Positions 1,282 through 20,976 of a stretch of 64,000 nt of DNA are shown piece after piece. Each line of letters starts with the position of its first letter. Positions within the stretch are counted from its first letter, which is position 1. The notes under the pieces are model-generated. The model saw nothing but the letters and a program-made list of their open reading frames with translations, made no database searches and was not told the origin of the DNA. Origin of the DNA: a virus. A program made the translations under genes and the position numbers. The stretch is from the IMG/VR virus record IMGVR_UViG_3300036402_000303, positions 1 through 64,000 of that record; one strand, given 5' to 3'.

Positions 1282-1289
1282 ATCCCATG

Positions 1290-1902
1290 GCGCGAAGCCG
1301 GCGATGGTCACGGTCTCCCGCTGCGCGCAGGTCTTCTTCACCCAGTCATTGCTTCGCCCGGTCGGGTAGACGCTGTCGCGCACCTTCGGCACCACGCCTT
1401 CCAGGCTGTCGACCTCGAAGCTTTCGCTGAACTGGACGTCGGTCCCGGCGATGATCTTCTTCAGTTCGGCCTTCCGCTGGAACAGCGGCACTTTCCGGAG
1501 ATCGCGCCCGTTCAGATAGAGCAGATCGAAGGCGACCAGAACGATGCTGGTCGACTTGCCCTTGAGCTTGTTCTGCAGCACCGCGTAGTCCTTAATACCG
1601 TCGGCGGCCGGAACTACGACCTCGCCATCGATGACGGCGGAGCCTGCCTTGATGTGCCAGGCGTCGTGGGCGACTTTCTTGAAGCGATGTGTCCAGTCGT
1701 GACCGCGCCGGGAGAATATCTGCAGCTCTTCGCTGGCAAGGTGGACCTGGACCCGGTAGCCGTGGAATTTGATTTCGTGAATCCAGCGGGACCCGGACGG
1801 CACCCTGTCGATCGCGGATGCCACGGCCGGCTCGATGAAGCCCGGCAGCGGCACCTTGATGCTTGATTTCGGCAGATTTCCTACGCTGGAACGCCCCGAC
1901 AA
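1290..1902 (-). pseudogene. Degraded ATP-dependent DNA ligase (LigD ligase-domain-like)
   Basis: Motif I reads EIKFHGYR (KxDG Asp replaced by His); IDGEV, AFDLL and EGVVxK present; apparent internal deletion; OB domain truncated at the HAD remnant. Confidence 0.75.
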
Positions 1903-6160: not shown

Positions 6161-6163
6161 CGT

Positions 6164-7999
6164 TCAGGCCGCCTTCGGATTGAAGTATCGTCTAAGACGC
6201 AAGATCAATTCTTTCAGATCTTCCTCGTCTCCGGGCTTGCTCACGTCGTAGTCGGCATAGACCGAATTCACCGCGTCCAGCCTTACGCAAGCGACGGAGC
6301 GCTCGAATTGCGACGCCGTGATATCACTTTTGATTGGTGCAAGACTTCCTCCGACATGCAGGTCATCAGCTCCAGGCGGAGGCTCGCCAAAATTCGCTCT
6401 GCGGCCGCTCTTGACCAATCCTTCAGGCGGCGCGCCGTGCGGGCCATCGCAGAGAACAATGAGCGGTGGGTGATATCCAACGATTGTCTTCCAAGCAACA
6501 ATCTCTGACAAGATCTGACGTTGCGTCCTTTCCGCATCCTGCCAAACAAGGATTGTCAGCTCATCGGCAAACCGCAATTGCCCCTGAATGTCATCATCGC
6601 TTTGCCAGACAATTCCCTTCGACGTTGAGATCGTTGCAAGTGCAAACATCGCATTTCGAAATGAATGCTCGACAGCCGGTACATGCAAGCGGTCCGGGTC
6701 ATGAATTGTTCCCGAGCTAACACCGTGCAAGAGTGTTCGTAGAAGCCGTTCTGACGTCGGCCGATCTCCCGCATCCAAGTGTACGGCCAATCGCTTAAGG
6801 CCTTGGCCCACCCGAGGTGCCCAAGTAACCAGCGGCGGATGTCGATGCAAGAATCGGGCGACTTCGGTTTGGCAGATCGGGGGTGGCTCAGTTACGGGCG
6901 CTGATATGCCGGCGTTAACGAGAGAACAACACAGGCTCGCGTGCCAAACAAAGAGGTTGCCCGTTGGGACATAAGGACTCCACGCTATCGGCCCTCCAAC
7001 GATCTGAGGCCGCGTGTCTCGAACGACGGCCCCCCTAACGTTTTGGCTCTCGATAGCCCGACCAGCCGGCAAATTCTTCTGATTGCGTGGTATTTCTGTG
7101 AAGCGAGCATAGACGCCAGACAGGGAACGCCATTTGTCGGTAGCCTCGTCCGCCAGGTAACAACTATTGGCGATGTTCGCTAGCGCTACCACAGTGGGTC
7201 TGCCGATCGTTGCTACATTGAGCCAATAATTAATCGCCGCATTCCAGTTGTCGTTCTGACGTACTTGATAGGTCGAGCCCGCGACAAGCACGGGACGAAC
7301 GGTGCCTCTACTCGGCACGAGAGACTGTTCGATACGCCTTAGCGCTGTCCCCTCCCCGTCGGCATAAGATTGAACAAGATCAGCACAAATTAGGGGGAAA
7401 ATGTCCAGATCGTTGAAGGCAATACGCAAGAGCATCTGACCACATGCCAGCGCAAGCTGCGCCTCTGCAGTCTGCTCAAGATGGTTTTTCAGGTGTGCAA
7501 TGCACATTGTCTCGGCAGCGAACCCGTGGATCCAACACCACCCGCCGTTAACCCGTAGGACATTGGAGATTGGCTGCTCGTCTTGATCCCATCCCAAATG
7601 GCGCGAGGTTACTCCGGCTGTTGCAGCCCATTGCAGCACGTCCTGGCCCCTAGTCGCACCAAATCCCGCGATAAGAACGAGCGGTTGAGGGCTAGCCCGC
7701 ACCGCCGCATCAATGGCGACCCAATCACCTGAGCCGAAGGCGTACTCGGGAGCAATAATCACCGCTGGAAGATGGCCCGGAGCCAAGTCGCGCAGCACGG
7801 GAGCACCGTGTCGAGCCCCCCCATTGAGTAGGTCGTTAATCACCGCGACCGTGGATGGCCTCGATGCGTCCGATCCAATCCACTCTAGAGGCGTTGGCTC
7901 GGTTTGAAGAATCACAAGATTGAGCCGGCCGTCTGCTAATCTGACGTTTGCGTCAACTGTCAAACTGGCGATTTTTAGATGGGTATCGAATTCAATCAC
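6164..7999 (-). CDS. Carbon-nitrogen hydrolase (nitrilase-fold) effector with C-terminal domain; start uncertain (GTG 7999; ORF open to 8284)
   Basis: Triad motifs IIAPEYAF (Glu), HLKNH (Lys), PLICADL (Cys); stop 3 bp before the middle component. Confidence 0.7.
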   Translation of the reverse strand: MIEFDTHLKIASLTVDANVRLADGRLNLVILQTEPTPLEWIGSDASRPSTVAVINDLLNGGARHGAPVLRDLAPGHLPAVIIAPEYAFGSGDWVAIDAAVRASPQPLVLIAGFGATRGQDVLQWAATAGVTSRHLGWDQDEQPISNVLRVNGGWCWIHGFAAETMCIAHLKNHLEQTAEAQLALACGQMLLRIAFNDLDIFPLICADLVQSYADGEGTALRRIEQSLVPSRGTVRPVLVAGSTYQVRQNDNWNAAINYWLNVATIGRPTVVALANIANSCYLADEATDKWRSLSGVYARFTEIPRNQKNLPAGRAIESQNVRGAVVRDTRPQIVGGPIAWSPYVPTGNLFVWHASLCCSLVNAGISAPVTEPPPICQTEVARFLHRHPPLVTWAPRVGQGLKRLAVHLDAGDRPTSERLLRTLLHGVSSGTIHDPDRLHVPAVEHSFRNAMFALATISTSKGIVWQSDDDIQGQLRFADELTILVWQDAERTQRQILSEIVAWKTIVGYHPPLIVLCDGPHGAPPEGLVKSGRRANFGEPPPGADDLHVGGSLAPIKSDITASQFERSVACVRLDAVNSVYADYDVSKPGDEEDLKELILRLRRYFNPKAA

Positions 8000-8069
8000 G
8001 GGAGGGGACACTATCAAATTGGTGGGACCAGAATGACTATAACCACCATAGCGGTGGTGCACGAGCACG

Positions 8070-8225
8070 TCACCAACAGGTTGTAGTGGAGGCGCATATA
8101 ATCGCTTTGTTGAAGGCGGCTTCCATTGCGAGCTTACCATTGACCACAAGGCTTTCAGCAATGTCAGCAATAGCGATGTGACCGCTGACGTCGTAGTCGG
8201 CCCGGTGCGGCAGCAATGCGTCCAT
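8070..8225 (-). CDS. 51-aa peptide ending in CASTTTCW, first gene of the ABC-3C operon
   Basis: GGGGGAAACAAAG-ATG; followed by ACCACC/GGTGGT hairpin at 8042-8058. Confidence 0.55.
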   Translation of the reverse strand: MDALLPHRADYDVSGHIAIADIAESLVVNGKLAMEAAFNKAIICASTTTCW

Positions 8226-8842
8226 CTTTGTTTCCCCCGAGTAGATGCAGTGCACGGGAGGAGCAACTTCAGGCGGTCATCCATATGACCTCTTGTGACG
8301 GGACAGCTTACAGGAAGCGGAATCCTGCTCTGTTCTCGCTACGCGATCTGAAAACGTAGAGAAATCAGCGTCGCGCCTCATACTTGAGGTCCCGTAGCCC
8401 CCGACAAGCGTTGGATTTGCTGCCTGCCCGGATTGATGCCGCCGATGAAGAAGGCGATCGTGTTGTGGATGACCTTGGCGTTGCGGTCGTTCTTAGGCGG
8501 CGGCCATCGACACGGTGCGTGTCTGCATGCCCCCCATCATCGGTGCTCCATCCAATTTGATCAATTTGGCCAGCCTGACCCATTGAATTGACCTTCCAGA
8601 ACACAGGTTGATAGGCCAAACCAAATTTTAGCCCGACAGCGGAGAATGCCGCCGCGCTTAAACCGCGCTTTGGGAACTCCTCGCCAAACATACCGTTCGT
8701 GTGGACAGGCCTGATGCTAGGCATCACCATCTAGGTGATCTCTTCTATTCATGACGGCGTGCCCACTTCCTGCCCTACCCACCAAGAGCCAATCGGCCTC
8801 TTTTGGGCTCCCTCTGTTTAACATCAACCATGGAGAAAAAAC

Positions 8843-9022
8843 CTGTCCTACATCTACGACCCCTGTAACGATCGACCTGTTCTCGCTGTTCGCCTTAAGA
8901 CCCACGAAATGGCTCGCATCGACGAAGCCCGTCACCGCATGAAGCTCTCGCGAAGCGACCTAGCTCGCCGTGCGTTGAGCAGCCTTTTAGATAAGCTTCA
9001 GGCTGAAGCTGCCGCGAAGTGA
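8843..9022 (+). CDS. CopG/ribbon-helix-helix regulator, CTG start (not in ORF track)
   Basis: GGAG-N7-CTG; VLAVRL...ARIDEARHRMKLSRSDLARRAL; TGA overlaps rep GTG (GTGA). Confidence 0.65.
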   Translation: MSYIYDPCNDRPVLAVRLKTHEMARIDEARHRMKLSRSDLARRALSSLLDKLQAEAAAK

Positions 9023-10104
9023 TCCGTCATCACGAGAAAAAGCCCCGAAAGCGCGTCGACGCTCCGGGGCCGATAACCTATTTCGTCACAGGAAACACCA
9101 TGCCACAACACAACCGCAAAAACAAATCCAGTAACGACAATAACCGCCCGTCTCCAATCATCACCTCACCGGAAGGTGTGAAGATTCAGATTACCGCTGG
9201 CCGCAAGCTTCAAGCGATCCGCTCCTTTGCCCGTGATCCTGAAATTACAGACGCCCAATTCAGGTCGATAGTCTGCATCGTTGACCGGCTGAATGAGGGG
9301 CGTGGCGAAGAGAGGCTCTGGGGAAGTGCCTATCCGAACTTCGAAACGCTGGCAGCAGATATCGCGAAGGATGTGCGCTCTGCAAAGCGAATCGTCAAAG
9401 AACTGGAAACCGGCCAGCGTGAAACCCGTTCCGACGGAGTAAAGAAGCTGAGCCCCGGCAAGGTCGTTCTGAGCGTCCAGCGATCAAAGGATCAGGACGG
9501 AAAGGACAGTGTTAATGAGTACCGCTTGAAGGAATGGGGTGCGTTCGTTGTCGCAGAACAATTCGAGGAGGGTGCGGTGACCGCACCCATACAGTCCGGG
9601 GAGGGTGCAGTGACCTGTAAGGAAGGGTGCGGTGACCTGTCAGGGAGGGTGCGGTCACCTGTCGGGAAGGGTGCGGTGACCGCACCCGACTCTACCCACT
9701 TACTCTCCTCAGAAACTCCACCCACAAACTCACCTCACATGGCGCCCGCCTGCGTCGAGCGTGAGCCGGTTGCTTCGATTGTTGATGAAGTCCGACCCAC
9801 CCAACCGGGAAATGACAACGATCCAGAATGGCCGTCAGCGGACGATGCCGTCGCCAAGTTCGCATTCCACTACCCCAAGGCAGTAGATCCTTCGAAGATA
9901 CGCAATCTCTTAGAAGAGATCAGGAAAGACGGCCGGACCAAGTTTAAGGATATCCTGCGAGGTGCCAGCCACTACAAGAAAGAGACGGTTGAGACCAAAC
10001 TCGAGTTCATCAAGTGGCCGGAGAACTTCTTGAAGGGCCGGCACTGGGAAGGGTATCAGCGAGACCGCACCAAAACGAGGTTCAAGAAGGTCGTGGCGAT
10101 CTAA
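9019..10104 (+). CDS. Phage-type replication initiator (HTH N-terminus, lambda-O-like layout)
   Basis: AYPNFETLAADI...AKRIVKEL...NEYRL HTH; internal iterons; C-terminal YPK...ILRGA..Y...FL..R.WE domain. Confidence 0.8.
   Translation: MIRHHEKKPRKRVDAPGPITYFVTGNTMPQHNRKNKSSNDNNRPSPIITSPEGVKIQITAGRKLQAIRSFARDPEITDAQFRSIVCIVDRLNEGRGEERLWGSAYPNFETLAADIAKDVRSAKRIVKELETGQRETRSDGVKKLSPGKVVLSVQRSKDQDGKDSVNEYRLKEWGAFVVAEQFEEGAVTAPIQSGEGAVTCKEGCGDLSGRVRSPVGKGAVTAPDSTHLLSSETPPTNSPHMAPACVEREPVASIVDEVRPTQPGNDNDPEWPSADDAVAKFAFHYPKAVDPSKIRNLLEEIRKDGRTKFKDILRGASHYKKETVETKLEFIKWPENFLKGRHWEGYQRDRTKTRFKKVVAI
9568..9687 (+). repeat. Five iterons (A/G)AGGGTGC(G/A)GT(G/C)ACC, putative origin of replication
   Basis: Starts 9568, 9601, 9623, 9645, 9667 (spacing 33, 22, 22, 22); first and last are palindromic GGGTGCGGTGACCGCACCC. 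Confidence 0.85.
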
Positions 10105-10116
10105 GGCTGACAATCC

Positions 10117-10314
10117 CCACCGGACCTCGAAAGGGGAGGCCGGTGGTTTCCGTGCGTGGGGCGAAGGATCGACCCTAGGTGTCTCACAGCGCGTCAGCTC
10201 TAGTTTTGAGGCGCCCGCCGGGTGGTCACCTTATCGACCGTGGTACACCTCCCGAGCGGTCCTGAGTGTACTCTCGATTGAGCGTGAGGTGCATCGACCC
10301 GGCTCCTTGCGCAC
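10117..10314 (+). ncRNA. Candidate structured RNA of unknown family
   Basis: GAAA-capped hairpin 10117-10146; closing stem 10152-61/10305-14; stems 10178-86/10207-15 and 10217-23/10297-303; many G-U pairs on the + strand. Confidence 0.5.
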
Positions 10315-10471
10315 TCCTTAAAGAGAGCAATTGTGATTTTCTTCCGCGGTCGTCCGACTTATGCCTGAAAACAGCGCGTTTCCTCAATTCTGGGGCTCAG
10401 ATCTTGAGATGACATTCGCTGCTATTGCCTAACAGCTGGGTGCTGACATTTGCATCCGGTTTGTGCGCCTC

Positions 10472-10500
10472 TTGACAAAAGAAGGGTATCCCTGTACAAG
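10472..10500 (+). promoter_or_regulatory. Sigma70-type promoter
   Basis: TTGACA-N17-TACAAG. Confidence 0.6.
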
Positions 10501-10541
10501 ACCTGACACCCTGCAAGAATTCTGAAAATCACCCAACCCGC

Positions 10542-10572
10542 AAAACCCCGCCCTCACCGGCCGGGTTTTTTC
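10542..10572 (+). terminator. Intrinsic terminator
   Basis: AAAACCCCGCC-loop-GGCCGGG followed by T7. Confidence 0.65.
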
Positions 10573-10713
10573 CGTTTTGGGGGTCGGAATTTTTGGCCGA
10601 TATCGCATCCGCCAGCCCGATCATCAGCATTTGCCGGGCGGTCCTGCCACCTCTCGCCACACCGCAACCCACCCCTAACGTCCGCACGTCATCGCGCGGG
10701 CAAACCTTGACCC

Positions 10714-10932
10714 ATGTCTCAACTAGGAAATTTCATGCCGCAAGAACTAAACGTAGCAAACATGTGGACCGAACCGACTCGGACTGTCGGCACGGTCTTT
10801 CCTCGATCGATGGTCGATGCGATCGAAGTTCGAGCGAGAGCCGAACTAATTTCTCGATCGTCTTGGATGCGCCGAGTCATCCTCGCCGAGCTTTCGAAGC
10901 GGTTCTCGGTGACTCAGGAACAGAATCGATGA
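10714..10932 (+). CDS. Ribbon-helix-helix regulator
   Basis: TRTVGTVFP...VDAIE...ISRSSWMRRVI pattern; ATGA-coupled to next gene. Confidence 0.6.
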   Translation: MSQLGNFMPQELNVANMWTEPTRTVGTVFPRSMVDAIEVRARAELISRSSWMRRVILAELSKRFSVTQEQNR

Positions 10933-11189
10933 AGAACTTGGATTTGATATCTGGCTGGTCCAATACGCTTACGGCTTTGCGCTGTTACACTCGGTCACGG
11001 GGTGTTGCACTTTCGTCTGAGCTTGAGAACCAGCTGACGGTCGCGCTTGTCGGCCGCATTAAGTTTGCGACGACGGACGAGCCTGTAGTGTTTGTCGACG
11101 ATAATGGCAAAGAGCACGATCTACTCACTCACGTCCTTGGAAGGCGGCCGGTCACGCCGCGGGCTCAGCTCAAACGAGAGGCAGCGTAA
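10929..11189 (+). CDS. Hypothetical protein
   Basis: ATG 10929 overlaps previous stop; GAGG RBS for next gene. Confidence 0.6.
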   Translation: MKNLDLISGWSNTLTALRCYTRSRGVALSSELENQLTVALVGRIKFATTDEPVVFVDDNGKEHDLLTHVLGRRPVTPRAQLKREAA

Positions 11190-11576
11190 ATGGCCGATCC
11201 TCTCGAAACCTTGATCCTGACAGAAGCCCGCAAGCAGGGCTGTCAGCCGAATACAGACGCAATGCGACAGGCGACCATTCATCTTGCCGGGGCTACCCTA
11301 AACGACCAAGGCCTGATCCATTTACCGAACGTCGGCAGCATCGCTCCGGCCGATTTCATTCGCTCGCTGCGAAGCCAGGCGCCGGAGTCGTTTGCAGCCC
11401 TCAGCGACAAACCGCCGGTCACTAAATCGAGCGGCAATCTGACGGCCGACATGAAGGCCGAAGTTGCTGCAAACCGCCGCCAGCGGGCGTTACCCAGCGA
11501 CTGGTGGGCCGTTCGCTCGAATACCACCGGAACCACGGCCCAGCACATGGCCGAACGCGAAAGGAATTGGAAGTGA
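11190..11576 (+). CDS. Hypothetical protein, possibly capsid-scaffold-like
   Basis: Coupled operon; SIAPADFIRSLRSQAPESF resembles C-terminal motifs of phage scaffolds. Confidence 0.6.
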   Translation: MADPLETLILTEARKQGCQPNTDAMRQATIHLAGATLNDQGLIHLPNVGSIAPADFIRSLRSQAPESFAALSDKPPVTKSSGNLTADMKAEVAANRRQRALPSDWWAVRSNTTGTTAQHMAERERNWK

Positions 11577-11854
11577 GACGACCGGGATTTATCGCTCGCC
11601 AGAAGGCGGCGAAATTGAAAGCGGAGGGGTATGACGTTGGCGAAGGCGTTCGGGCCGCTCGTGGCCTTGCCCTCGCGCTATATGATCTCCGCAGACGGCA
11701 ATGCGACGCCGACCAGCGAGTCAATAATGCCCGTGCAAAGCTTGAAGCCGTTGACGTGTCCGCGCTGGAAGTTGAACTTTCCGCCGCGTTGGCGGAACAA
11801 GCAGCAGTCTCGGGCGAGTTGAAGGCGCTAGAGCAGCAAGCGTTGGCGGCCTGA
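11573..11854 (+). CDS. Coiled-coil hypothetical protein
   Basis: GTGA overlap; Ala/Glu/Leu heptad-rich C-terminus. Confidence 0.6.
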   Translation: MRRPGFIARQKAAKLKAEGYDVGEGVRAARGLALALYDLRRRQCDADQRVNNARAKLEAVDVSALEVELSAALAEQAAVSGELKALEQQALAA

Positions 11855-12136
11855 CGGCAAGCGGGTTAGATTTTGGACGGCAGTCACGGCCTCGCCCCCG
11901 GGGGCTGCAGTCCCTGGAGGCGCCGTGGATGATTGATGCTCGAAAGATCCTGGGCTCGCGGCTTTCATGTGCATCACGTCTCCGGCGGTTGCTGACCCTT
12001 ACTGCCGACCGACAAAGGATCGTGACCAGATCGCCAAGGCCGGCAACGTTTCTCCGGTTGGATACTTGGCTTCAGGACTATGCTGCATTCAGTTCATTCC
12101 GACTCGCGACGGGCTTATGCTAAACTCCCCGGCCGA

Positions 12137-12880
12137 TCATGCCCGACTGGATCGTTTGTTAGTACCACCAGCTACTGCGTTTTGTTTCGGTAGTCGTGAC
12201 AAGACGCGCTTCACCTGTACTGCTTGCCACTGACCACGGCCGCGTGGCGTCTCAACGCCCTGATCGCTGAGGCGCGAGGCAATGCCGCTAAGTGACGTTA
12301 CGCCGGCAGCCTGTAGCTCTAGGATGGCAAGTGCAGCATTTGCGGCCTTGGCGTCTGCGCGCTTGGCGATGGTCTCCCTGCCCTTCGCAATCGCATCAAG
12401 AGTTAAAGTGACTGGCTTACCGTCAGCGTGTGTCCGCCGACCGCCAAGCTTCACGCCCCGGGCTTTAGCGGCCTGTAAAGCGGCCGTTGTGCGGGCAGAA
12501 GCCATGCGCCGCTCTTCTTCCGCAACCATTGCCATGATGCCGATGGTCAGCCGGTTGGCGTTGGGCATGTCGGCAGCCACGAAATCAACGCCGTCCTCTT
12601 CCAATCCGAGAAGGAAATGCGCATTGCGGGAAAGCCGGTCCAACTTTGCGATGACCAGCTTCGCACCAAACATCCGGCATGCAGCACGGGCCGCCTCGAG
12701 CTGCGGCCGGTCGGATCGTTTGCCGCTCTCGACTTCCGTGAATTCTTTGACGAGCTTCCAGTCGCCTCCATTCAAATAAGCGGCGACAGCCGCTCGTTGA
12801 GCTTCAAGACCGAGGCCACTTTTGCCCTGCTTGTCTGTCGAGACGCGATAGTACGCGACCCATTTTCCAGTTGCTTTCAT
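12137..12880 (-). CDS. Serine recombinase (resolvase family with short C-terminal recombinase segment)
   Basis: YYRVST catalytic Ser, SG...RPQL, KLDRLSR motifs. Confidence 0.9.
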   Translation of the reverse strand: MKATGKWVAYYRVSTDKQGKSGLGLEAQRAAVAAYLNGGDWKLVKEFTEVESGKRSDRPQLEAARAACRMFGAKLVIAKLDRLSRNAHFLLGLEEDGVDFVAADMPNANRLTIGIMAMVAEEERRMASARTTAALQAAKARGVKLGGRRTHADGKPVTLTLDAIAKGRETIAKRADAKAANAALAILELQAAGVTSLSGIASRLSDQGVETPRGRGQWQAVQVKRVLSRLPKQNAVAGGTNKRSSRA

Positions 12881-12889
12881 CTCGGTCCT

Positions 12890-12923
12890 TACATTCTAGT
12901 CAACGTTCGTTGACTAGTTTGTA
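12890..12923. promoter_or_regulatory. Palindromic resolvase crossover/autoregulatory site
   Basis: TACA-TT-CTAGTCAACG-TT-CGTTGACTAG-TT-TGTA immediately upstream of the resolvase. Confidence 0.6.
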
Positions 12924-13275
12924 TACAGCGGGTGAGGCCTCAGCAACCGAAAACTTGCACACGATCAAAGAATCTTGCTCTCGAATCGTCAGGTCATGAC
13001 GCGGCGGCGGGCGAGGCACCTTGCTGTGTAAGGGCAGGCCCAAACATCCGCTGCATTGATCCATCCACCACGGCTTCCCAGCGCTGCACGTCGACGGCGG
13101 TGTGTCCGCGCGCCCGTGATCGATGGCCGAACTTTTCTGACGGTATGCCGCCGCATCGACCGACCGCTCAACGCAACGAATTCCTAAAAGGCCATTTACC
13201 GGCCCCCCATACGCCCCTCCAAAAGACCCACCCTATTCAGCGGGCCGCTCTAAATCGCTGCCAGAAAGAAAAAAC

Positions 13276-16200
13276 ATGTCCGAAAACCTATCCGTCATGA
13301 CCAAGTTCACAGCTCATGACGAAGCTTCGCCAGTCGTCAGGAAACTGCTGTCGAACATCCAGCGGCTTGAACGCGGTGTGAAGAACTTCAACAGCGCGTT
13401 TGGTGCATCCGCTGACGCCGGAACTGCCGCGTTCGGCAATTGGTCGAAATTGACCGACCGATTGAACCAATCGTTAAAGGCTTCTGTCCGTGGCGCAAAC
13501 GATTATGGCCGGGAATGGCAGCGGAATCATGAAACCCGTCTGCGTGGCGAACAGCGCTTGCACGCCTCAATCCTTCGCTTGGATCAAATTGCCTTTAATC
13601 GCCGCATGTCGCAGCATGCCGCCATCACCAGGCAGCAATCAAGTCTTACACATCGTGAACCCGCTCCATCGCGCATGACCGGTAGTAGCCGGTACGGCAT
13701 CTCGCCAGTGAGGACCGCAATCGTCGGTGGCATCGCCTCTGCGGGCATCGCGTCGGTCTTCAAGCGCCGAATGGAAATCGACACCGCTGAAGTGAAGGCC
13801 AGAATTTTCGGAGAGCTTTCGAAAGACGATATCAAGCAGTCCCGTCGCTGGATCGATAAAGACTCGATCAAGTACGGAGTTTCGTCTGGCAAGATCGTTG
13901 ATGCCTTTACGGAATCGCTCAAGGCCGGATTCAGCCGGGATGCGGCGCAACAGATCGCGCAAGGCGCTCTGAAGGCCCAGAGCGCGGTCGAACTCGATAT
14001 CGGCCAGCTGATTAAGCTGAGCGGCAAAACGGCAACTATTTTCGGCGGCGACGTTAAAAACACGGATCCAGCCCGCGTCTTGAAATTGATGAATGCCATT
14101 GCCGTGGCGTCGGCTGAGACCGCCGCGGACCCGGATGAGGTCATTGAAGGCTTCAAGAAAGGCAACGCAGCGCTGGCGATGTCGAAAATGTCGGAAGCCG
14201 ACCTTGCGGCGATTCTGTCGGTCGGCATCTCGGGCGGCATCCAACCAAGCAAGGCGGGAAATGCCGTCTCCAATCTGGTCTCGACTATTGTCGGCGGCAA
14301 GAGCGCTCGCGGGCAGAAGGCCCAAGACTTGAACGAAGCCGCCCGCATGCTCGGTTACGGTGGCAAGAACAATCTTTCAGATCGGATGACGAACGATCCG
14401 ACCAACGTCCTGGTCGAGATGTTCCAGCGATTGAACGCCTTGTCGGAGCAGAACAAAACCAAGGTTGCTCGCAGGCTCGGTGGGTCAGAATGGGACGATG
14501 AGATTTTGATGCTGGCTAAGCCGGTCGATCAGATCGTTGCGACGCTCAGGGCCGTGAAGTCCAAAGTAGATATGATGGACAAGTCATCGGCTGAGAAGCT
14601 GAATTCGCTTCAAGGACGGTGGTCTAGCATCTCGGCTGCGTTCGGTCTCGGATTGGAGAAATTTGGAGCAGGCTTCGAAGATCCATTTATCGAGATCTCC
14701 GACTGGTTCCGATCAAAAATCGATAAGCTTGATTTCGATTCCGTCAGGAGGAAATCAAAGCAACTCGTCGACGGATTTAAGGCGGCTTTTGGTATTGCAG
14801 ATATCAAGCAGTCCCTCGACGGCATGCTGAGCAAAATTCAATCCACCAACGTCACGAAGGTTGTTGATTTTGCGGCCGGGGTCGCGTCAGGCATCAAATC
14901 GGTCGCTGACAGTTTCGCAACTGCGATCAGATCCATCGCCAGCGTCATGGGCAAGGATGGTAATGACACCGCAGTCCTCGGCAAACTCACCGGACAGATC
15001 ATCGGCTTGTCCGTAGCGTTAGGATTGCTGGCGCCTGTCCTGACCGTGCTCGCGGGCTTGATTGGCATTGTTCGTGGTGCAGCACTGTTGCTTGGAGTCG
15101 GCACTGCCGCCCGCATTGGTGCACGTACTGCACTTGGAGTGGCCGGTGGACCCGCCGCTGGGATGGCGTTGCTTGGCGACGGTAAGCCCGGCAATAGCGC
15201 ATCCGACATCACCGGGCTTCAGGACGCGATCAAAGCGGAGAGGGAGAGGAAGCGTCTGCTTAAGGAAGCTGGTAAGGGCGATGGCAGAGCCGACCCGCTC
15301 TTCCATCCGACCAGCCTCCGCAGCGACATCGGCGACAAGTTCGATAAGATGGGCGCGAAGCTTGAGCGCATCGCCTTCCAAGGCGGCGGGATGACCGACC
15401 TCAGTTCGAGAAATCGGACCGGTGGCGGCATCCAGAACGCCATAATGGGCGGCGGATCAAGCAGCGGCGGCACCGGTGGTATGACAAAATTGCTCAGCGG
15501 CGTCGGAACTCCGAGCGCTTTGTTCAATGGCGTGCCGGGTAGCGCTTTGCCAAACTTCGGCATAGGCCGCAGCGGAACCATCATCAGGCGAGGCGGAGTT
15601 GGTGGCATCGTCAACCAGGACAGTATCCCGTCGTTCACTGGCGGTGGTGGATCGGTGGCCGACAATGTCGGGGCCGGCTTGTCGGGTAACGCGTTCCTTG
15701 CAGCTCGCCGAGGAAAGTTCGCCGAGGAGATGAAGAACGATCCAAGCCTGAGGATGCATCTCGCTGCCATGCAGCAGACCGAGGGTATCAGCAAAGGCGG
15801 AACTATTGAGAGCCTGATGAACCGCGCGGACATGCAAGGGAAGTCCCTCCGGCAGATGCTTGGCTACAGTGCTGACGGACAGATCAACCCGAGGAGCTTC
15901 TACGGTCCAATCCGTCGAGGTGAACTCGGTCCGGCAATCCGCAGGCTGCAGAGCAACCCGAAGGAGTTCGCGAAGTACGACGGCTACACCCAGCGCGCTC
16001 TTGCGGGCAATCACGCCATTGGCGGTTACACTGACCAGGGCCTGCCCACTGATCCGAACGGATCGAAGAGAACCGGCGGTCGGTTCCCGTTCATGAAGAT
16101 CAGTCCGAAGGACGGTAACGAGTTCACTGATTGGGTTGGACCGGGATCGCAATGGGGTAAGGGCCGTGCCGGTGCGATGAACTATCGCAAGTTCATCGAA

Positions 16201-16446
16201 AACGGCATCGCCGGGTCCGGCCCGGTGACCAGCAACGTGCCTTCAGCTGCTGAGAACATTCAGAACGTCCCGATGCTGAAGCCGAATAACGACGCAGGTC
16301 TCGGCGGCAGGGGCGGTCGTGGCGGCTCGACGATCAATATCAACGGTGGAAGCCATGACGCGGAGTCGCTTGCAACGCTGGTCCAGCGTCGCGTCGACGA
16401 CTCGATGCAGTGGCGAACCCACGACAGCGAGTCTGAATATACATGA
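13276..16446 (+). CDS. Phage tail tape measure-like protein with Gly-rich linker and putative C-terminal cell-wall hydrolase domain
   Basis: N-terminal FTAHDEASPVV, helical core (S.AGNA...), hydrophobic segment, C-terminal INING...LATLV. Confidence 0.75.
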   Translation: MSENLSVMTKFTAHDEASPVVRKLLSNIQRLERGVKNFNSAFGASADAGTAAFGNWSKLTDRLNQSLKASVRGANDYGREWQRNHETRLRGEQRLHASILRLDQIAFNRRMSQHAAITRQQSSLTHREPAPSRMTGSSRYGISPVRTAIVGGIASAGIASVFKRRMEIDTAEVKARIFGELSKDDIKQSRRWIDKDSIKYGVSSGKIVDAFTESLKAGFSRDAAQQIAQGALKAQSAVELDIGQLIKLSGKTATIFGGDVKNTDPARVLKLMNAIAVASAETAADPDEVIEGFKKGNAALAMSKMSEADLAAILSVGISGGIQPSKAGNAVSNLVSTIVGGKSARGQKAQDLNEAARMLGYGGKNNLSDRMTNDPTNVLVEMFQRLNALSEQNKTKVARRLGGSEWDDEILMLAKPVDQIVATLRAVKSKVDMMDKSSAEKLNSLQGRWSSISAAFGLGLEKFGAGFEDPFIEISDWFRSKIDKLDFDSVRRKSKQLVDGFKAAFGIADIKQSLDGMLSKIQSTNVTKVVDFAAGVASGIKSVADSFATAIRSIASVMGKDGNDTAVLGKLTGQIIGLSVALGLLAPVLTVLAGLIGIVRGAALLLGVGTAARIGARTALGVAGGPAAGMALLGDGKPGNSASDITGLQDAIKAERERKRLLKEAGKGDGRADPLFHPTSLRSDIGDKFDKMGAKLERIAFQGGGMTDLSSRNRTGGGIQNAIMGGGSSSGGTGGMTKLLSGVGTPSALFNGVPGSALPNFGIGRSGTIIRRGGVGGIVNQDSIPSFTGGGGSVADNVGAGLSGNAFLAARRGKFAEEMKNDPSLRMHLAAMQQTEGISKGGTIESLMNRADMQGKSLRQMLGYSADGQINPRSFYGPIRRGELGPAIRRLQSNPKEFAKYDGYTQRALAGNHAIGGYTDQGLPTDPNGSKRTGGRFPFMKISPKDGNEFTDWVGPGSQWGKGRAGAMNYRKFIENGIAGSGPVTSNVPSAAENIQNVPMLKPNNDAGLGGRGGRGGSTININGGSHDAESLATLVQRRVDDSMQWRTHDSESEYT

Positions 16447-16453
16447 TCTATTC

Positions 16454-16482
16454 CCGGCCCTTCCACTGAGGGGCGGGCTTTG
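16454..16482 (+). terminator. Putative terminator after tape measure gene
   Basis: GC-rich hairpin followed by TTTG. Confidence 0.4.
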
Positions 16483-16561
16483 TCTGAATGCAAACGAATA
16501 CAAATCGCTATGCAAATGCGAATCAGTCTGAGTGATCTATCTCAACCAGAGATAGAGGGTC

Positions 16562-17101
16562 ATGAATATGGAAATTGAAAGCAAAGTCGAAACTCTGATC
16601 CATCAACTTTTCAAAGTTGATGGATCAGCCGTTCTCGTCAACGCAGCGCAGTCCTCTGCCTACTCCCTATTGGTATTCCTTGATTTTGTCACAGCGCAGG
16701 AGTCCTTTAACGGAATTGGGCACACCCAGCCGTTACACAACGGCTGGCCGAAACAGTCGCGCTCCGTCATCACGATCTTGAAGGCCGCGTATCCCCCTTA
16801 CCCGAGGGGTAACATGGCGCAGGAGAACAAACTGGCGGCAGCGGAATTGGAAAAACTACGAGGAACGATCGACTTTCAACATATCTTGGACGGCGCAGTG
16901 CGGTATGCAAACAGTCGGCGGGGTCAGAACTGTAGGAATAATGACAGACTTTCGGCGTTCCTTGCCGAACGGAAATGGGAAGTCCAAGATAATTCATCGG
17001 TCAAGCCGCCGGATAATGACAACGATCCAGATGACCGTCGGCGGAAGATGCGGTCGTCATTCTCATCTGCTAGCCCAAGTGAGGAGGCCGCTCGAAACTA
17101 G
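16562..17101 (+). CDS. Hypothetical protein containing a copy of the Rep C-terminal domain
   Basis: AYP...FQHILDGAVRY...FLAERKWE matches Rep HYP...FKDILRGASHY...FLKGRHWE. Confidence 0.65.
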   Translation: MNMEIESKVETLIHQLFKVDGSAVLVNAAQSSAYSLLVFLDFVTAQESFNGIGHTQPLHNGWPKQSRSVITILKAAYPPYPRGNMAQENKLAAAELEKLRGTIDFQHILDGAVRYANSRRGQNCRNNDRLSAFLAERKWEVQDNSSVKPPDNDNDPDDRRRKMRSSFSSASPSEEAARN

Positions 17102-17327
17102 AATGTTTTGCAACATGGGTCGCGGAGGAGGCAGGCCGCTCTTGGGGCTCGAGAGTCTCCTGGCGGGAGGTCGCCGGTGTAAATCAGGCAGGGTGCGAGA
17201 GGGGGTACGGCCTTCCAAAAGACTCCACCCCAATCGGGAGGTTCAGTGGCGCGCTGTGCTGCGCATGACCGGCGCGCGCTCCGCGCTGAGAGTCGACAAC
17301 GGCGCCGCCGTCGGGCAGAACAGTTCC

Positions 17328-17564
17328 ATGCGTATCCCTCTGATGTTGCTTGTCACCTTACCCCTCCTGACTGCTTGCGGCGGCGGTTACCACCCCCTCG
17401 AAGGCCCTGTCGCAGACATGCGAGGCGTCGACGCCAACAAATACAATCAGGATCTGGTCGTCTGCCAGGACCAGAAACGCCAGGCGTCGTTCGTAGGGTC
17501 CGCGCAAATGATCTCGAACTGCATGGCCGCGAAGGGTTACACGATCATCGAGCCGAAGGGCTGA
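17328..17564 (+). CDS. Small lipoprotein
   Basis: MRIPLMLLVTLPLLTAC lipobox; C...CM..KGY motif. Confidence 0.75.
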   Translation: MRIPLMLLVTLPLLTACGGGYHPLEGPVADMRGVDANKYNQDLVVCQDQKRQASFVGSAQMISNCMAAKGYTIIEPKG

Positions 17565-17568
17565 CGGC

Positions 17569-17817
17569 GTGCGCATCACGCTCGTCCCGCTGACCATCCT
17601 GCCGCTCCTGGCCGCCTGCAGCACCAACAGCGCCCTGGAGACGCCCGTCGTCGACCAATGCGGCGTCCCCCATGAGGAGTTCACGGCAGACTAGGCCGAG
17701 TGCATCGATCGCGCGGCCCAAAGCGCCCCAGTGTCGTTCGGCGCGCCGATGACCGCCTGCATGCGCGAGAAGGGCTACCCGATACTGGCGGGCAGGAGCC
17801 GAGGCGATCGAGTGTAG
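17569..17817 (+). pseudogene. Paralogous lipoprotein with internal TAG (17692-17694)
   Basis: MRITLVPLTILPLLAAC...FTAD*AEC...CMREKGY. Confidence 0.65.
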
Positions 17818-17870
17818 CGAGGGCTGCGCCCTGAGATGACAATTATGCCGGTGGCGCGTACCTTCCGGAG

Positions 17871-18335
17871 ATGGCCGTCATCAAGATACCAACGAGCGAA
17901 CAGCAGAAGGAAGCCGAGGACGGCTATGCCATCCTTGTCGGAAGGGTGAGCCTGCTGTGGGCAAAGATCCACGAAGACTTGGCTCAGATCTACATCTACA
18001 GGTTCAACTCTGCTGCAGCCAGACTGGCCGAGGCCGATTGGTATTCGCACAGGTCGGACAGCGCGCAGCGCGAGCTGCTGACGAAAACGATCGAGCGGAT
18101 GGATATCCGCGGCGCCGAAACCTTTCCAAATGCCAAAGGGGACTTGCTCTGGTCCATCGGCCGGATCAACACGCTCGCCAGGATCCGCACGGTGAGGTCG
18201 GTCGCTTCGCGCCCGTGCATGTGCGCCATGACCTGGCCCAGGTCACGCTTGTCGACCAGCGGCCCGCAGATATCGCAATTCCCGAAGTGCTCGATCTCGG
18301 GGCGGCTGGGGTTCTCGACGTCGGTGCCGGTGTAG
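17871..18335 (+). CDS. Hypothetical helical protein, probably truncated near 18185
   Basis: Protein-like N-terminal two thirds; 3' part overlaps an opposite-strand gene. Confidence 0.4.
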   Translation: MAVIKIPTSEQQKEAEDGYAILVGRVSLLWAKIHEDLAQIYIYRFNSAAARLAEADWYSHRSDSAQRELLTKTIERMDIRGAETFPNAKGDLLWSIGRINTLARIRTVRSVASRPCMCAMTWPRSRLSTSGPQISQFPKCSISGRLGFSTSVPV

Positions 18336-18352
18336 CGCGGGATCTTCGGCAT
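17996..18352 (-). CDS. Small CxxC/His hypothetical protein
   Basis: HFGNCDICG...RDLGQVMAHMH motif. Confidence 0.45.
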   Translation of the reverse strand: MPKIPRYTGTDVENPSRPEIEHFGNCDICGPLVDKRDLGQVMAHMHGREATDLTVRILASVLIRPMDQSKSPLAFGKVSAPRISIRSIVFVSSSRCALSDLCEYQSASASLAAAELNL

Positions 18353-18671
18353 GGCTGATTTCTATGCTGGCCAGTCAGCCGAGCAGCCGGCTTAGCGCGA
18401 CGGCGGCGGCGGTGACCAAACGTGAGAACGCTGGCTGCGGTCGGGATAAGGAAGGCGCGGTCTATGCGGGCACTCCAGGCTCACTGTGCCGGGGCCGCGG
18501 CAGTCGCACCGGAACATGGCACCTGGTTGCCGGATTTCGGATCGATCGCTCGGCTGCAATGAGCACAGGTGGGCGGAGGCTTCGTCTGTATTGATTCGCC
18601 ATCGGCTTGTGTAGGGTAGCGAGCGCTCCGCGCATCCCCTATAAGCGAGGCGCTGCAGCCGACGAGGTCCC

Positions 18672-19106
18672 GTGAAAATCGAGAAGCCGAAGATCTATCA
18701 CATCGCCAAATATCCGCCGCCGGTCGGCGGTCGCGTGAAGGTCTGGTTCGACAAAGCAACGTCCCATCTTCTGGTTGAGGACGAGACCGGTCGCGTCGGC
18801 TGGGACATCTATGGCGTGCCGCTGTCCGACGTCGTGTTCGAGACCGAAACGACGCCGCGCGGCGCCGTCCGTTGCCTGGCTCGTGGCACAATCATCGCAA
18901 CCTCGAACACCAGAGCGGACCAAGAAGCGAGAGCCAACATCATCACGACTGGCCGCCCCATCGAGTTTTACTGGACCCGCGATAAGCAGTGGCCAATTGC
19001 GTCCGCCCGCGTGGCGCTCATAAGCAAGCCAGACGGCGGCTTCACCTCGTGCTACGCCGTCGATCCATCGCCGAGGGTAGCGAGCGCTCGGTCAGGCCAG
19101 CTGTGA
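18672..19106 (+). CDS. Hypothetical protein
   Basis: 144-aa ORF, GAGG upstream of GTG. Confidence 0.55.
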   Translation: MKIEKPKIYHIAKYPPPVGGRVKVWFDKATSHLLVEDETGRVGWDIYGVPLSDVVFETETTPRGAVRCLARGTIIATSNTRADQEARANIITTGRPIEFYWTRDKQWPIASARVALISKPDGGFTSCYAVDPSPRVASARSGQL

Positions 19107-19169
19107 AGCGTTACGGATGAGCGGGGGCCGCTAAGCAGAATAGGGAAGTGCCCGCCGCATAGCTCTCTC

Positions 19170-20852
19170 TCATTGATGGGCAGTAAAGCCGCTGAGGAGT
19201 TCCGGGTCTGACGGATTGGCGACCTTGGGTATGGCGTCGATCACGCGGGTCATAGCCATCACAGACACGTCGCCATAGTCATCGCCAGATGTTCGCGCCG
19301 CATGACCTTGGATGGCATCAACGACTCGCGGATCAAACCCAAGGTCGCGGCTGATCGTCTTGAAGCGATGCCGCCATGCATGGTTAGGCTGGACTCGTTC
19401 GTCGGTGACAACCGTCCGTACCAGAGCTACGACTTGAGTGTAGCAGCCCTCTGCAAACAGCGGCCCGTCATCTGACTCATCAACGAACTCCAATAGGCCT
19501 AATTCGATCAGGTGTTGGTGGATCGGCACGAGTCGAAATATCCCGGTTTTGATCCCGCCAGCCAGCGGGTTCAGGTCGAAAATTTGACGTCCGGACTCTT
19601 CACGGATGTCCTCCTTGCGAAGCTGCAAGGCCTCGCTGATCCGGCAGCCAGTGTAAGCGGCAATAAGAGGAGACCACCGCTTGGTTGCCGCCGTTCTGGG
19701 ATACTCTTTCGGTTTTCGCACGTAAGACAAGCACGCGCGGAAAACAGCTGCCGATTCCTGATCCGTGAACCCCTTTTTCCGGGTTACAATTTTCTTCGGC
19801 GCTTTGATTTTAACTGCATCAGCCGGATTCTTGGTTAGCTTTCGATTGTCCACGGCCCAGCCGAGCACCGACTTAATCCCCGGCAGATCGCCGTCTTTGA
19901 AGGTCTTTGCGGTCACCACCTTGAGACGGGCATCCTTGTATTCAAGCATGTTTGCCTCTGTCAGGCGGCTTGCATCATCGTGATCAAGATGTTTAACGAG
20001 CCTGTCGATGGCGCCCTTGTAAGTGTCATATGTGCTTTGGGTACGTCCGGTAGCCTTGGCTTCCTTCCACCACAGGTCAAGCAATCCCGTGATCGTCTGC
20101 TTTCGTTTCGCCGCTGCGACGGTTTCGACCAGCGGGAAGCGAATGGCCTTTGGGTCAGGGCTGTAGTCGCCCTCTGCATTGCGTTTCAGTTGCCAACCAG
20201 CATCTAACGAGGCCGTCCCGACGAGGCGAAGGAGGCGTTGCCGATCTTCCGGGACAAGGTGAATGCGATGCCGAATTAATACGTAGTCCGTCAGCAAGCC
20301 GAACCGCTCTTGGAGGACGTTGTACTGCCCGGCAGGGAAGGCGTTGATCGCCTCCGTCAGGTTTCCAGTCCCGAATAGCTCTTTCGCGAGGGCCGCCTCA
20401 TTCACCTTAAGAGTGGCGGGTGGAGTACTCGGGATGCGTCCCTCAATCGCCGCTCTATGGAACGCTTTGTGGTAAGCCCAGACATCCGGCTCTCCGGGAT
20501 CATTCCCATGAACTTCCTGATAGAGCCGGTATGCCTCGCCGCTCAGTGCCACCATATCCTTGTGCGACAAGCTGACAGGACCAGCGGCGGTCATCTCAAA
20601 TAGCCGCTGCAGGTGCTCAAGGGCGTCCACATGACGCGCCTTGGCAATGCGTTCGTCGCTTTCCCCAAGGGAGAATGCAACGTCGGTCCCGATGGTCACG
20701 ACCTTGATGTAGGCCGGTCCAAGCTGGCTCGACAGGTGCAATAGAACTTTCATGCCGCGTAGCCGGTCAACAACTTTGGCCGGGACGCGACAGCGGAATT
20801 GGGGGACGCTGGATCGGGAACGCTTATCCATCAAGTACTTTAAGGAAACCAT
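19170..20852 (-). CDS. int: Tyrosine integrase (DUF6538-like N-terminus) of the satellite element
   Basis: YTGCRISE, IKT, HAWRH, QGH and DYG catalytic residues; next to tRNA 3' end. Confidence 0.9.
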   Translation of the reverse strand: MVSLKYLMDKRSRSSVPQFRCRVPAKVVDRLRGMKVLLHLSSQLGPAYIKVVTIGTDVAFSLGESDERIAKARHVDALEHLQRLFEMTAAGPVSLSHKDMVALSGEAYRLYQEVHGNDPGEPDVWAYHKAFHRAAIEGRIPSTPPATLKVNEAALAKELFGTGNLTEAINAFPAGQYNVLQERFGLLTDYVLIRHRIHLVPEDRQRLLRLVGTASLDAGWQLKRNAEGDYSPDPKAIRFPLVETVAAAKRKQTITGLLDLWWKEAKATGRTQSTYDTYKGAIDRLVKHLDHDDASRLTEANMLEYKDARLKVVTAKTFKDGDLPGIKSVLGWAVDNRKLTKNPADAVKIKAPKKIVTRKKGFTDQESAAVFRACLSYVRKPKEYPRTAATKRWSPLIAAYTGCRISEALQLRKEDIREESGRQIFDLNPLAGGIKTGIFRLVPIHQHLIELGLLEFVDESDDGPLFAEGCYTQVVALVRTVVTDERVQPNHAWRHRFKTISRDLGFDPRVVDAIQGHAARTSGDDYGDVSVMAMTRVIDAIPKVANPSDPELLSGFTAHQ

Positions 20853-20856
20853 GGTC

Positions 20857-20879
20857 TGTGTGGCACCATTGTGTGGCAC
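20857..20879. repeat. Direct repeat TGTGTGGCAC x2, likely integrase arm sites
   Basis: 20857-20866 and 20870-20879, between int and att. Confidence 0.5.
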
Positions 20880-20924
20880 TCAGGACCGAATTTCCAATAA
20901 AATCAACATCTCCAATGGGATGAG

Positions 20925-20976
20925 TGGTGCTGCCAGACAGGATTGAACTGTCGACCTCTCCATTACCAATGGAGTG
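20925..20976 (-). tRNA. 3' fragment (52 bp) of tRNA-Thr(GGT) serving as att site; not an intact tRNA
   Basis: Reverse complement CACTCCATTGGTAATGGAGAGGTCGACAGTTCAATCCTGTCTGGCAGCACCA: anticodon arm, T-arm and CCA present, D-arm and 5' acceptor absent. Confidence 0.9.

Follow-up and report, generated by a model that had tools for sequence, protein, structure and literature searches.

The stretch of DNA analysed here (the window) comprises the first 64 kb (64,000 nucleotides) of the 76.7-kb IMG/VR "provirus" record IMGVR_UViG_3300036402_000303. Within its first 21 kb lies a mobile element, in which an earlier note made without database searches had seen a satellite-like unit with a tape measure protein (TMP) as its only recognisable virion protein. 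The genes listed in that note were all recovered by Pfam, PHROG or tblastn matches: a replication initiator (Rep) with iterons, two ribbon-helix-helix (RHH) regulators, a resolvase with a palindromic site, the 1056-residue TMP and a tyrosine integrase (Table 1). Its statement that virion genes for capsid, portal, terminase, tube and baseplate are lacking was likewise upheld, since none of the open reading frames (ORFs) of 8.3-21 kb matched a capsid, portal, terminase, sheath, tube, baseplate, chaperone or hub family in Pfam or PHROGs. Comparison with relatives identifies the window element as one copy, somewhat worn, of a self-replicating integrative element whose family is conserved among the Nitrobacteraceae. 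Mobility, self-replication and integration at tRNA genes characterise this family, and a full-length TMP of the myovirus type, kept under constraint, is the only virion protein it encodes.

The TMP of the element is intact and consists of a conserved N-terminus, a PF10145 core (residues 198-403), hydrophobic segments at residues ~570-635, a Gly-rich linker, an enzymatic domain and an invariant C-terminus. A database TMP (P0002) is 93% identical to it. In a protein search 96 TMP homologues were obtained, nearly all from Bradyrhizobium and other Nitrobacteraceae, and matches in the plasmid collection were limited to two distant ones (30%) from Methylobacterium. The ratio of nonsynonymous to synonymous substitution rates (dN/dS), which the earlier note had proposed as a check for relaxed selection, was calculated by the pairwise Nei-Gojobori method, with saturated or non-orthologous resolvase and Rep pairs disregarded. 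It was 0.10-0.12 for element TMPs (dS 0.38-0.56) and 0.11 for a pair of phage TMPs (L007-L009; L numbers denote the sequence loci compared). Purifying selection on the element TMP is as strong as on phage TMPs, and relaxed selection was not seen. For the integrase of the element, dN/dS was 0.07-0.13.

To place the element, 26 genomic loci were taken and their ORFs were clustered into families (F numbers), so that the gene calls of the relatives are those of our own ORF clustering. At least 17 genomes, from Bradyrhizobium, Afipia, Nitrobacter and Rhodopseudomonas, contain a shared module with the order RHH (F7), Rep (F8), RHH (F4), F6, F9/F15 (coiled coil), F5, resolvase on the opposite strand, TMP, F10/F18 and integrase. 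Homologues of myophage tail genes other than the TMP were not found in the 17 element loci, and no element locus contained homologues of the phage chaperones (F77, F70) or of the hub-region proteins (F56, F26, F44). Occurrence of homologues only within full prophages with adjoining tail genes, the outcome that the earlier note had named as counting against its proposal, was thus not borne out. Integrases of the window type (45-73% identical) lie ~50 bp from tRNA-Thr(GGT) in 10 genomes; some family members carry a different integrase of 395 residues and sit elsewhere. Direct repeats of the last 23-30 nt of the tRNA bound complete units of 13.5 kb (L008), 14.3 kb (L019) and 17.4 kb (L017). In eight relatives iterons with a period of 21-23 bp are present at the same place inside rep, and their sequence varies with the N-terminal domain of Rep. 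What recurs is therefore a discrete mobile element with integration and replication functions and without autonomous virion genes, which is the make-up of a phage satellite. No paper describing this Bradyrhizobium element family was found in the literature.

The modules of the elements are mosaic, as L005 and L016 have nearly identical rep, F4 and F6 genes (dS 0-0.04; Rep 0.04, F6 0.01) and diverged TMP (dS 0.56) and integrase (dS 0.80) genes. Of the window, a ~90%-identical groundwater relative has 11.2-17.2 kb and 19.1-20.98 kb, but its rep region is a different one. The slot between the left attachment site (att) and the RHH-Rep genes is filled with changing cargo, in the relatives with MmeI-type and Type ISP restriction-modification genes, DUF499, an AbiEii-like ATPase and ResIII proteins. 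In L010 (436-3688) and L014 (648-4050) the cargo comprises a DEAD/ResIII helicase and, after it, a protein whose C-terminal domain is T5orf172 (GIY-YIG-like), a domain implicated elsewhere in phage-satellite conflicts (PMC10448857). End-joining genes are also present, namely Ku in L003 (4913-5962; PF02735, E 6e-48) and L025 (at 7881) and a ligase in the window and in L012, which suggests that the DNA arrives as a linear duplex. Decayed copies were seen in L013 and L018 (both 10001-15100) and in L015 (10001-12162), where only the C-terminal third of the TMP or a split TMP is found and the integrase is spread over three frames; in L023 only the last 41 TMP codons are left beside integrase fragments. 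Among 151 Bradyrhizobium species genomes, 11 contained a TMP homologue. In two of these it stands beside a close sheath gene (87-89% identical), and the remaining nine have no close sheath, about four of the nine TMPs being truncated or split. Five Bradyrhizobium genomes without the TMP family studied here (G119, G087, G115, G083 and G028; G numbers denote genomes or phage records) contain a sheath homologue of 39-41% identity with one in-frame TAA at a similar place; this may be another tail-like cluster or a query alignment spanning two genes.

All 36 close homologues of the TMP in IMG/VR lie in one contractile-tail module with the order tail fibre, sheath (phrog_23), tube, two small chaperones, TMP, tail proteins (phrog_76, phrog_52), peptidoglycan hydrolase and "DNA transfer" protein. 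The same tail module is present in Bradyrhizobium phage BDU-MI-1 (KY940711; 121 kb, host B. diazoefficiens USDA110), which has an integrase and was the only one with a TMP homologue among 50,697 phage records. Of the myophage records, G155 and G159 are the most complete, and both were taken whole. G159 (L088-L094) has a terminal overlap of 10.3 kb (bases 1-10320 and 117312-127632, 99.93% identity) and is a circular or terminally redundant phage genome of ~117.3 kb, the size of BDU-MI-1.

Overall, the TMPs of elements and BDU-MI-1-like phages are 31-45% identical. The identity is unevenly distributed, with ~32% over the first 33 residues, 9-36% over most of the length, 45% in the bin preceding the last 33 residues and 83% over these last 33 residues. 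This terminal segment likely docks a tail or baseplate partner encoded by the phage. As the only evident partner of the strictest-kept segment is a phage tail or baseplate protein which the elements do not encode, the element TMP is predicted to work inside phage-made tails, and this is our strongest argument from the sequences.

Directly ahead of the C-terminus, a domain of ~200 residues behaves as an exchangeable cassette in both elements and phages. Besides the window, L003, L004 and the majority of phages have the type called variant A here. Eight elements have a TIGR02594-like type, L021 and L026 as well as the phages L020 and L060 have an M15 peptidase type, and a PF18013 lysozyme domain is listed for some of the database homologues. 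When the model of the variant-A domain (mean pLDDT, the predicted local distance difference test score, 59; 70-94 over most of the domain) was subjected to a fold search with VIA-align, two SleB catalytic domains were obtained with Z scores of 6.4 and 6.1, the next match having 3.7. Foldseek and Pfam gave no match for the variant-A/C-terminal domain. Judged from the modelled fold, it is probably a SleB-like lytic transglycosylase. The variant-A domain of the window is 61-72% identical to those of phages (70-73% at the nucleotide level) and 62-69% identical to those of the two elements of the same type, while the N-terminal 750 residues of the window TMP group with elements, which indicates that elements and BDU-MI-1-like phages have recombined.

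Contact with these phages extends beyond the TMP. A profile of the element Rep detected full-length homologues in G155 and G159 with the same N-terminal HTH_36 and C-terminal domains, ending in ...K(K/R)(V/R)VAI; the window Rep itself matched no protein of isolated phages, and its kinship to the phage Rep is visible only with the profile. Further proteins common to elements and G155/G159 are a Cro/CI-type helix-turn-helix (HTH) protein (F60, 45% identity), an ATP-dependent ligase (66-69% to the L012 copy), F115 (59-77%), F5 (80%), F10 (35-40%) and an F16-type integrase (58%). In BDU-MI-1 an F5 protein 85% identical to that of the elements is encoded close to the phage integrase (KY940711, 37328-37585), and other copies lie in L022 (3772-4086) and G159 (70-270). 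The resolvase, F6, F4, F7, F9/F15 and the F3 integrase are not shared with the phages, and in the phage the genes shared with elements are not contiguous with the TMP gene. In addition, the 20-nt motif GGGTAGCGAGCGCTCCGCGC of the window was found in L004 (3171-3185), L013 (13074-13088) and L018 (13190-13204) as well as in phages, where 2-5 co-oriented copies stand between consecutive small genes (G159, 63.5-65.0 kb; G155, 51.8-52.1 kb). Within the ~1.9 Mb of DNA compared it is confined to elements and BDU-MI-1-like phages, and it could be a regulatory or recognition site borrowed by the element. Ongoing exchange of the TMP C-terminal domain, F5, F10, ligase and Rep points to repeated meetings of element and phage in one cell, and the comparisons put the element family in genetic contact with BDU-MI-1-like phages.

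In trees of the TMP (quick search without mixture model), a single branch parts 17 element from 26 phage TMPs, with support in the Shimodaira-Hasegawa-like approximate likelihood ratio test (SH-aLRT) of 100 for the whole protein and of 99 when the last 300 residues were omitted. Such a split, together with an own Rep/iteron replicon, resolvase and integrase and the lack of a co-resident helper prophage in the genomes searched, would also be expected of an integrative plasmid-like replicon that captured a TMP once and uses it independently of phages, e.g. as a membrane-inserting cell-wall hydrolase for its own transfer or for competition. We regard such a use as improbable, as it leaves unexplained why the best-kept residues of the TMP (the last ~33-60) are those common with phage TMPs, with a tail or baseplate protein as the only obvious partner, and why the C-terminal domain, F5, F10, ligase and Rep are still exchanged with one phage family. 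Moreover, no secretion or conjugation genes were found. The same tree bears on the view that the elements are stumps of BDU-MI-1-like prophages, in which deletions have left the TMP as an inert survivor. Only one transition between element and phage TMPs is needed, not many independent decays; complete att-bounded units exist, the dN/dS of the TMP is ~0.1, and a gene order which includes the phage-absent families named above recurs in at least 17 genomes. The number of genes common with BDU-MI-1-like phages would fit a stump, as would the frameshifted F5 and absent left att of the window and the clearly broken relatives L013, L015 and L018, yet in the phage these common genes do not adjoin the TMP. 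Decay of this kind is very unlikely to account for the family.

Table 1. Features of the element in the window (positions in nucleotides of the 64-kb window).
Feature	Position	Strand	Evidence or remark
ATP-dependent DNA ligase, ligase domain only	1084..1902	-	PF01068, E 7e-25
ABC-3C three-gene defence system	2673..8284	-	AAA_23/SMC_N; PF20395 CTD3, E 1e-36; ATPase 2673-5558, middle gene 5555-6160, CTD3 effector 6164-8284
RHH regulator 1 (F7)	8837..9021	+	tblastn 57% identical to L019 F7, E 2e-17; family member matches PF01402, E 2e-7
Rep replication initiator, N-terminal HTH_36 and conserved C-terminal domain	9019..10104	+	HTH_36; phrog_270
Origin, five 22-bp-phased iterons inside rep	9563..9692		core GGGTGCGGTGACC
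RHH regulator 2 (F4-like)	10714..10932	+	homology to F4 (ends ...PNRSSWMRRAL...), E 9e-7; clustering; RHH-type gene at 10723-10899
F6, conserved element-specific protein, 128 aa	11190..11576	+	present in 12 loci
F15, coiled-coil protein, ~90 aa	11579..11854 (listed ORF 11504-11854)	+	homologues in 6 loci
F5, gene for small secreted Cys-rich protein	11929..12233	+	frameshifted near 12089-12095, signal peptide degraded; halves match in different frames
Small serine recombinase (resolvase)	12137..12880	-	PF00239 full domain, E 1e-28; phrog_125
16+16 palindrome, candidate crossover/operator site	12890..12923		10 bp upstream of resolvase start
Tape measure protein, intact, 1056 aa	13276..16446	+	PF10145, 65.1 bits (cut-off 33.2); phrog_1259, E 2e-88; phrog_28, E 2e-23
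TMP variant-A domain, residues ~809-923	15700..16044	+	probably SleB-like lytic transglycosylase
TMP last 33 residues, likely docking segment	16345..16443	+	near-invariant columns, ...HINGxSHDPEALATLVQRRIDESMNWRTHDTESEYT
Variable region of small ORFs without family matches	16562..19106	+	strand and gene calls uncertain
20-nt motif GGGTAGCGAGCGCTCCGCGC	18614..18633	+	second partial copy 19074-19088
Tyrosine integrase (F3), 569 aa	19170..20879	-	phrog_1, E 4e-31
tRNA-Thr(GGT) 3' remnant, right attachment site	20925..20976	-	100% match to L017 tRNA

Both RHH regulators counted in the earlier note are recognised through relatives, the first by way of a family member that matches PF01402 and the second by its homology to F4. 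The stop codon of the first overlaps the start of rep, and no ATG, GTG or TTG is present ahead of its beta-strand. Homologues of Rep were found in 10 element loci. Its iterons lie within the initiator ORF between the N-terminal DNA-binding and the C-terminal recruitment domain, an arrangement like that of lambda O in its architecture, and a repeat with a 13-bp period (9702-9739) follows directly after them. The model of F6 (pLDDT 78) had no fold match, Foldseek searches with F6 gave no match either, and relatives of F6 were not found among viral contigs. The idea that F6 is phage scaffold-like was rejected, because the Atlas scores (0.85-0.88) did not reach the range regarded as reliable and scanning ten members with Pfam gave no backing. 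F10 is absent from the window copy; Atlas matches of this family were to unnamed clusters only, and PDB sequence-profile searches with F6, F10 and the TMP gave none below E 0.08. Members of the F5 family are secreted proteins of ~65 mature residues with conserved cysteines, and F5 is a candidate entry-exclusion factor. Seventeen loci have the resolvase gene, and in all of them it diverges from that of the TMP. Its palindrome is kept alongside the related resolvases of L021 and L026 and occurs in a variant form in L003 and L005, and thus co-varies with resolvase relatedness. In the groundwater relative, the variable region downstream of the TMP is swapped for other DNA. A suggested paralogue of the Rep C-terminal domain at 16562-17101 was dismissed after BLASTP and tblastn gave no support. 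The integrase scored 23.4 bits against PF00589, below the Pfam cut-off of 27.1.

The right end of the element can be located exactly. The remnant listed in Table 1 is the exact 3' 52 nt of tRNA-Thr(GGT), the match ends at 20976, and matches of 89.6-90.4% in L003, L005, L012 and L021 span both the remnant and the spacer between integrase and tRNA. The description of the integrase as tRNA-adjacent therefore applies to a fragment of the tRNA gene; a complete one was detected by ARAGORN and Rfam neither in the window nor in the rest of the record. For the ~12-kb unit proposed in the earlier note (8843-20976), this means that the end was exact. The start at 8843 is the opening of the first RHH reading frame and not an element boundary. 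The att core TGGTGCTGCCAGACAGGATTGAA occurs once in the window, a second copy with up to 3 mismatches was not found in 1-20900, and no repeat of at least 12 nt is common to 8.2-9.1 kb and 20.8-21.1 kb. In the window the right end alone can thus be identified, and att-bounded units are known from the three relatives named above. Since no left att was found and the ABC-3C and ligase genes occupy the cargo slot of the relatives, the element probably extends beyond the left end of the record and spans at least 21 kb. The ABC-3C system is likely cargo of the element. The ligase probably belongs to its accessory region; a homologue sits within the core of element L012 (5293-6021), and a small ORF at 2213-2476 has homologues within the elements of relatives.

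To the right, a second integrase (20994-22403) begins 18 bp past 20976 and heads a lambda-like prophage that fills 20977-64000 and continues in L002 (record positions 64001-76726). Because the tRNA match stops 18 bp before this integrase, we conclude that the prophage entered the same tRNA-Thr, displacing its 5' part, and separated the element from the intact gene. No intact tRNA was found up to the record end, which places the right att of the prophage beyond 76,726. From ~28 kb on, the lambda-like set is complete; the prophage genes include a CI/S24 repressor, primase/D5, gpA terminase, lambda-type portal, ClpP protease, gpD, E-type capsid protein and tail tube. The gene in the TMP slot (46875-50474, 1199 residues) had no Pfam or PHROG match. 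At the integrase-proximal end, a 535-aa protein (24268-25875, minus strand) shows a short HNH-like match (phrog_333 and phrog_589, E ~4e-6). The prophage was considered as a helper and rejected, since its TMP-slot protein shows no similarity to the 1056-aa TMP. IMG/VR files all 76.7 kb as one provirus and the two regions adjoin, so that 9-21 kb might be regarded as an accessory arm of the prophage (21-64+ kb). We consider this extremely unlikely: the tRNA-Thr fragment and two integrases lie between the regions, the prophage is equipped with complete head and tail genes of its own and with an unrelated gene in the TMP slot, relatives of the element are found where this prophage is absent, and the GC content differs, being 0.55-0.63 in 9-21 kb, 0.53-0.58 (one bin 0.62) further left and 0.60-0.66 in most of the prophage.

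The proposal of the earlier note, an alphaproteobacterial satellite that hijacks helper tails, can thus be kept in modified form: the TMP is conserved and a phage partner is indicated by its C-terminus, by the exchange of hydrolase domains and by shared genes, the likely helper being a BDU-MI-1-like myovirus and not the neighbouring prophage. In our view, the chances are about even that the element is a satellite which builds its own TMP into contractile tails made by temperate myoviruses of the BDU-MI-1 type (~117-121 kb). Infection by, or induction of, such a phage would lead to excision of the element and to replication from its Rep/iteron origin, and Rep, having both domains in common with the phage initiator, may use the same partners. 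The element TMP would then join the chaperones, sheath, tube and baseplate of the helper via its common N- and C-terminal segments, and the element DNA would be packaged into phage heads, probably as concatemers of ~7-9 units, a number which follows from the 117-kb phage genome and units of 13.5-17.4 kb. After injection as linear DNA, it would be recircularised (with the help of ligase or Ku in several members), resolved to monomers at the palindrome and integrated. Substitution of the TMP may spoil or bypass helper tails, by analogy to the phage-inducible chromosomal island-like element PLE11 of Vibrio, or sidestep an entry block. By the same analogy and speculatively, F10, F6 or F9/F15 are candidate blockers of the helper TMP which would let the element remain assembly-competent, and F5, secreted and common with the phages, could be such an entry block.

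Several observations weigh against this satellite reading. Contigs from public runs show no circle or empty-site junction (short-sided joints disregarded), and neither a small terminase gene (terS) nor a cos or pac signal nor a gene for capsid resizing was recognised. Unlike in PLE11, the TMP is not accompanied by a tail chaperone or hub gene. A myophage sheath was found in none of the five element-bearing genomes searched directly, nor in nine TMP-positive genomes of the 151 species. In the window copy no left att repeat was found and two small genes look damaged (the RHH gene at 8837, without a canonical start codon, and the frameshifted F5), and several relatives (L013, L015 and L018) are decayed. 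Besides GGGTAGCGAGCGCTCCGCGC, only the TMP 3' end is DNA shared with the phages. Finally, as the TMPs of elements (980-1290 aa) and phages (1096-1296 aa) overlap in length, no tail-length phenotype is predicted.

Some of these points would suit a purely defensive decoy, a dominant-negative TMP that ruins the tails of invading BDU-MI-1-like phages in an element that is itself not packaged or transferred by phage. No packaging function was recognised, elements and myophage were not found together in the genomes searched, the same elements carry variable anti-phage cargo, the invariant docking end is common with phage TMPs, and tail-targeting defences are known (PMC11364771, PMC10884400; Rta in PMC12987554). 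The non-co-residence of element and myophage could equally reflect phage exclusion or a mainly lytic helper. A decoy, however, needs docking parts only, yet constraint as strong as in phages extends over the entire 1000 and more residues, membrane segments and enzymatic domain included, and hydrolase domains pass between elements and phages. The presence of Rep, resolvase, integrase and ligase/Ku rather points to a cycle of excision, replication and linear re-entry, and rapid horizontal spread and mosaicism require a vehicle where no conjugation gene is present. Defence alone is therefore an unlikely explanation.

Comparison with known satellites places a helper-tail satellite closest in strategy to the PLEs. 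The chimeric tails of PLE11 are built with a TMP, a chaperone and a hub protein that it encodes itself, which confirms what the earlier note had said of Vibrio PLEs, and putative tmp genes have been noted in PLE-like elements and in some phage-inducible chromosomal islands of the capsid-forming type (cf-PICIs) (PMC12987554). Like PLEs, the Bradyrhizobium elements are small, integrated and anti-phage, with an own replication initiator, an own TMP and no full virion set, and the PLE TMP, distantly related to that of the helper, replaces the helper myovirus TMP in otherwise helper-built contractile tails. PLEs differ by the tail chaperone, the baseplate hub protein, a capsid-resizing scaffold and the TMP inhibitor Rta (PLE11), none of which is recognisable in the Bradyrhizobium elements by Pfam, PHROG or cluster content, and further by host phylum, integrase type and replicon. 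Their helper ICP1 is virulent, whereas BDU-MI-1-like phages carry an integrase, and PLE function has been shown experimentally, whereas the Bradyrhizobium family is known from sequence alone.

In E. coli, putative satellites that carry TMP and baseplate genes have been described (Barth, Dunham and Seed 2023, PMC10448857). These satellites of Inny, Muut and Mt1B1_P17, compared here by their description, resemble the present elements in size (~13 kb), in adjoining a tRNA, in having a tyrosine integrase, a TMP and a modular Rep with swappable DNA-binding domain, and in the absence of most tail genes; they differ in their major capsid, decoration and baseplate genes and in their enterobacterial hosts. 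The EPIPs of Mycolicibacterium aichiense, reported in 2025 (bioRxiv; PMC12822802), are likewise a satellite class noted for a TMP and have tails unlike those of the helper, but carry terS, adaptor, stopper, scaffold and capsid genes and a serine integrase, and belong to Actinobacteria with siphovirus-type helpers. With P4-like elements as well as phage-inducible chromosomal islands (PICIs) the family has in common that they are tRNA-integrating, self-replicating islands of 10-17 kb with variable anti-phage cargo, but those satellites manipulate capsids and packaging and not the tail core. None of the P4, PICI and cf-PICI markers (Sid/Psu/Delta, alpha primase(-helicase), AlpA, terS, Pri-Rep, capsid/protease/adaptor) was found in 8.3-21 kb with Pfam and PHROGs. 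BDU-MI-1-like phages themselves differ by a complete head, sheath, tube and baseplate set and by ~10 times as much DNA. As it fails the tested marker features of PLE, P4, PICI and cf-PICI, the family is filed apart from them. TMP-carrying satellites as such are already known; the present family is a candidate for a satellite, in Alphaproteobacteria, whose sole virion gene encodes the TMP. Tentatively, it may represent a minimal satellite class of Alphaproteobacteria which contributes only the TMP to the structure of ~120-kb temperate myovirus virions, where a TMP with swappable hydrolase domain would decide who is injected or disable helper tails.

Replacement of the helper TMP was shown only in 2026, for cholera PLEs, and is predicted for few other groups. 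If the satellite reading is true, this strategy would extend to soil and nodule Alphaproteobacteria in its barest form, with one virion gene, and the tail core, not the capsid, would be the sole point of piracy; concatemer packaging with processing by resolvase and ligase/Ku would stand in for capsid resizing. A testable phage is at hand, as BDU-MI-1 was isolated on B. diazoefficiens USDA110 and named strains have intact elements, and the conserved last ~33-60 residues of the TMP are a candidate docking interface for the study of TMP selection in tail assembly. Given the changing anti-phage sets which they carry, the elements are likely to spread defence genes among rhizobia of importance to agriculture, and they could affect phage-based or inoculant applications.

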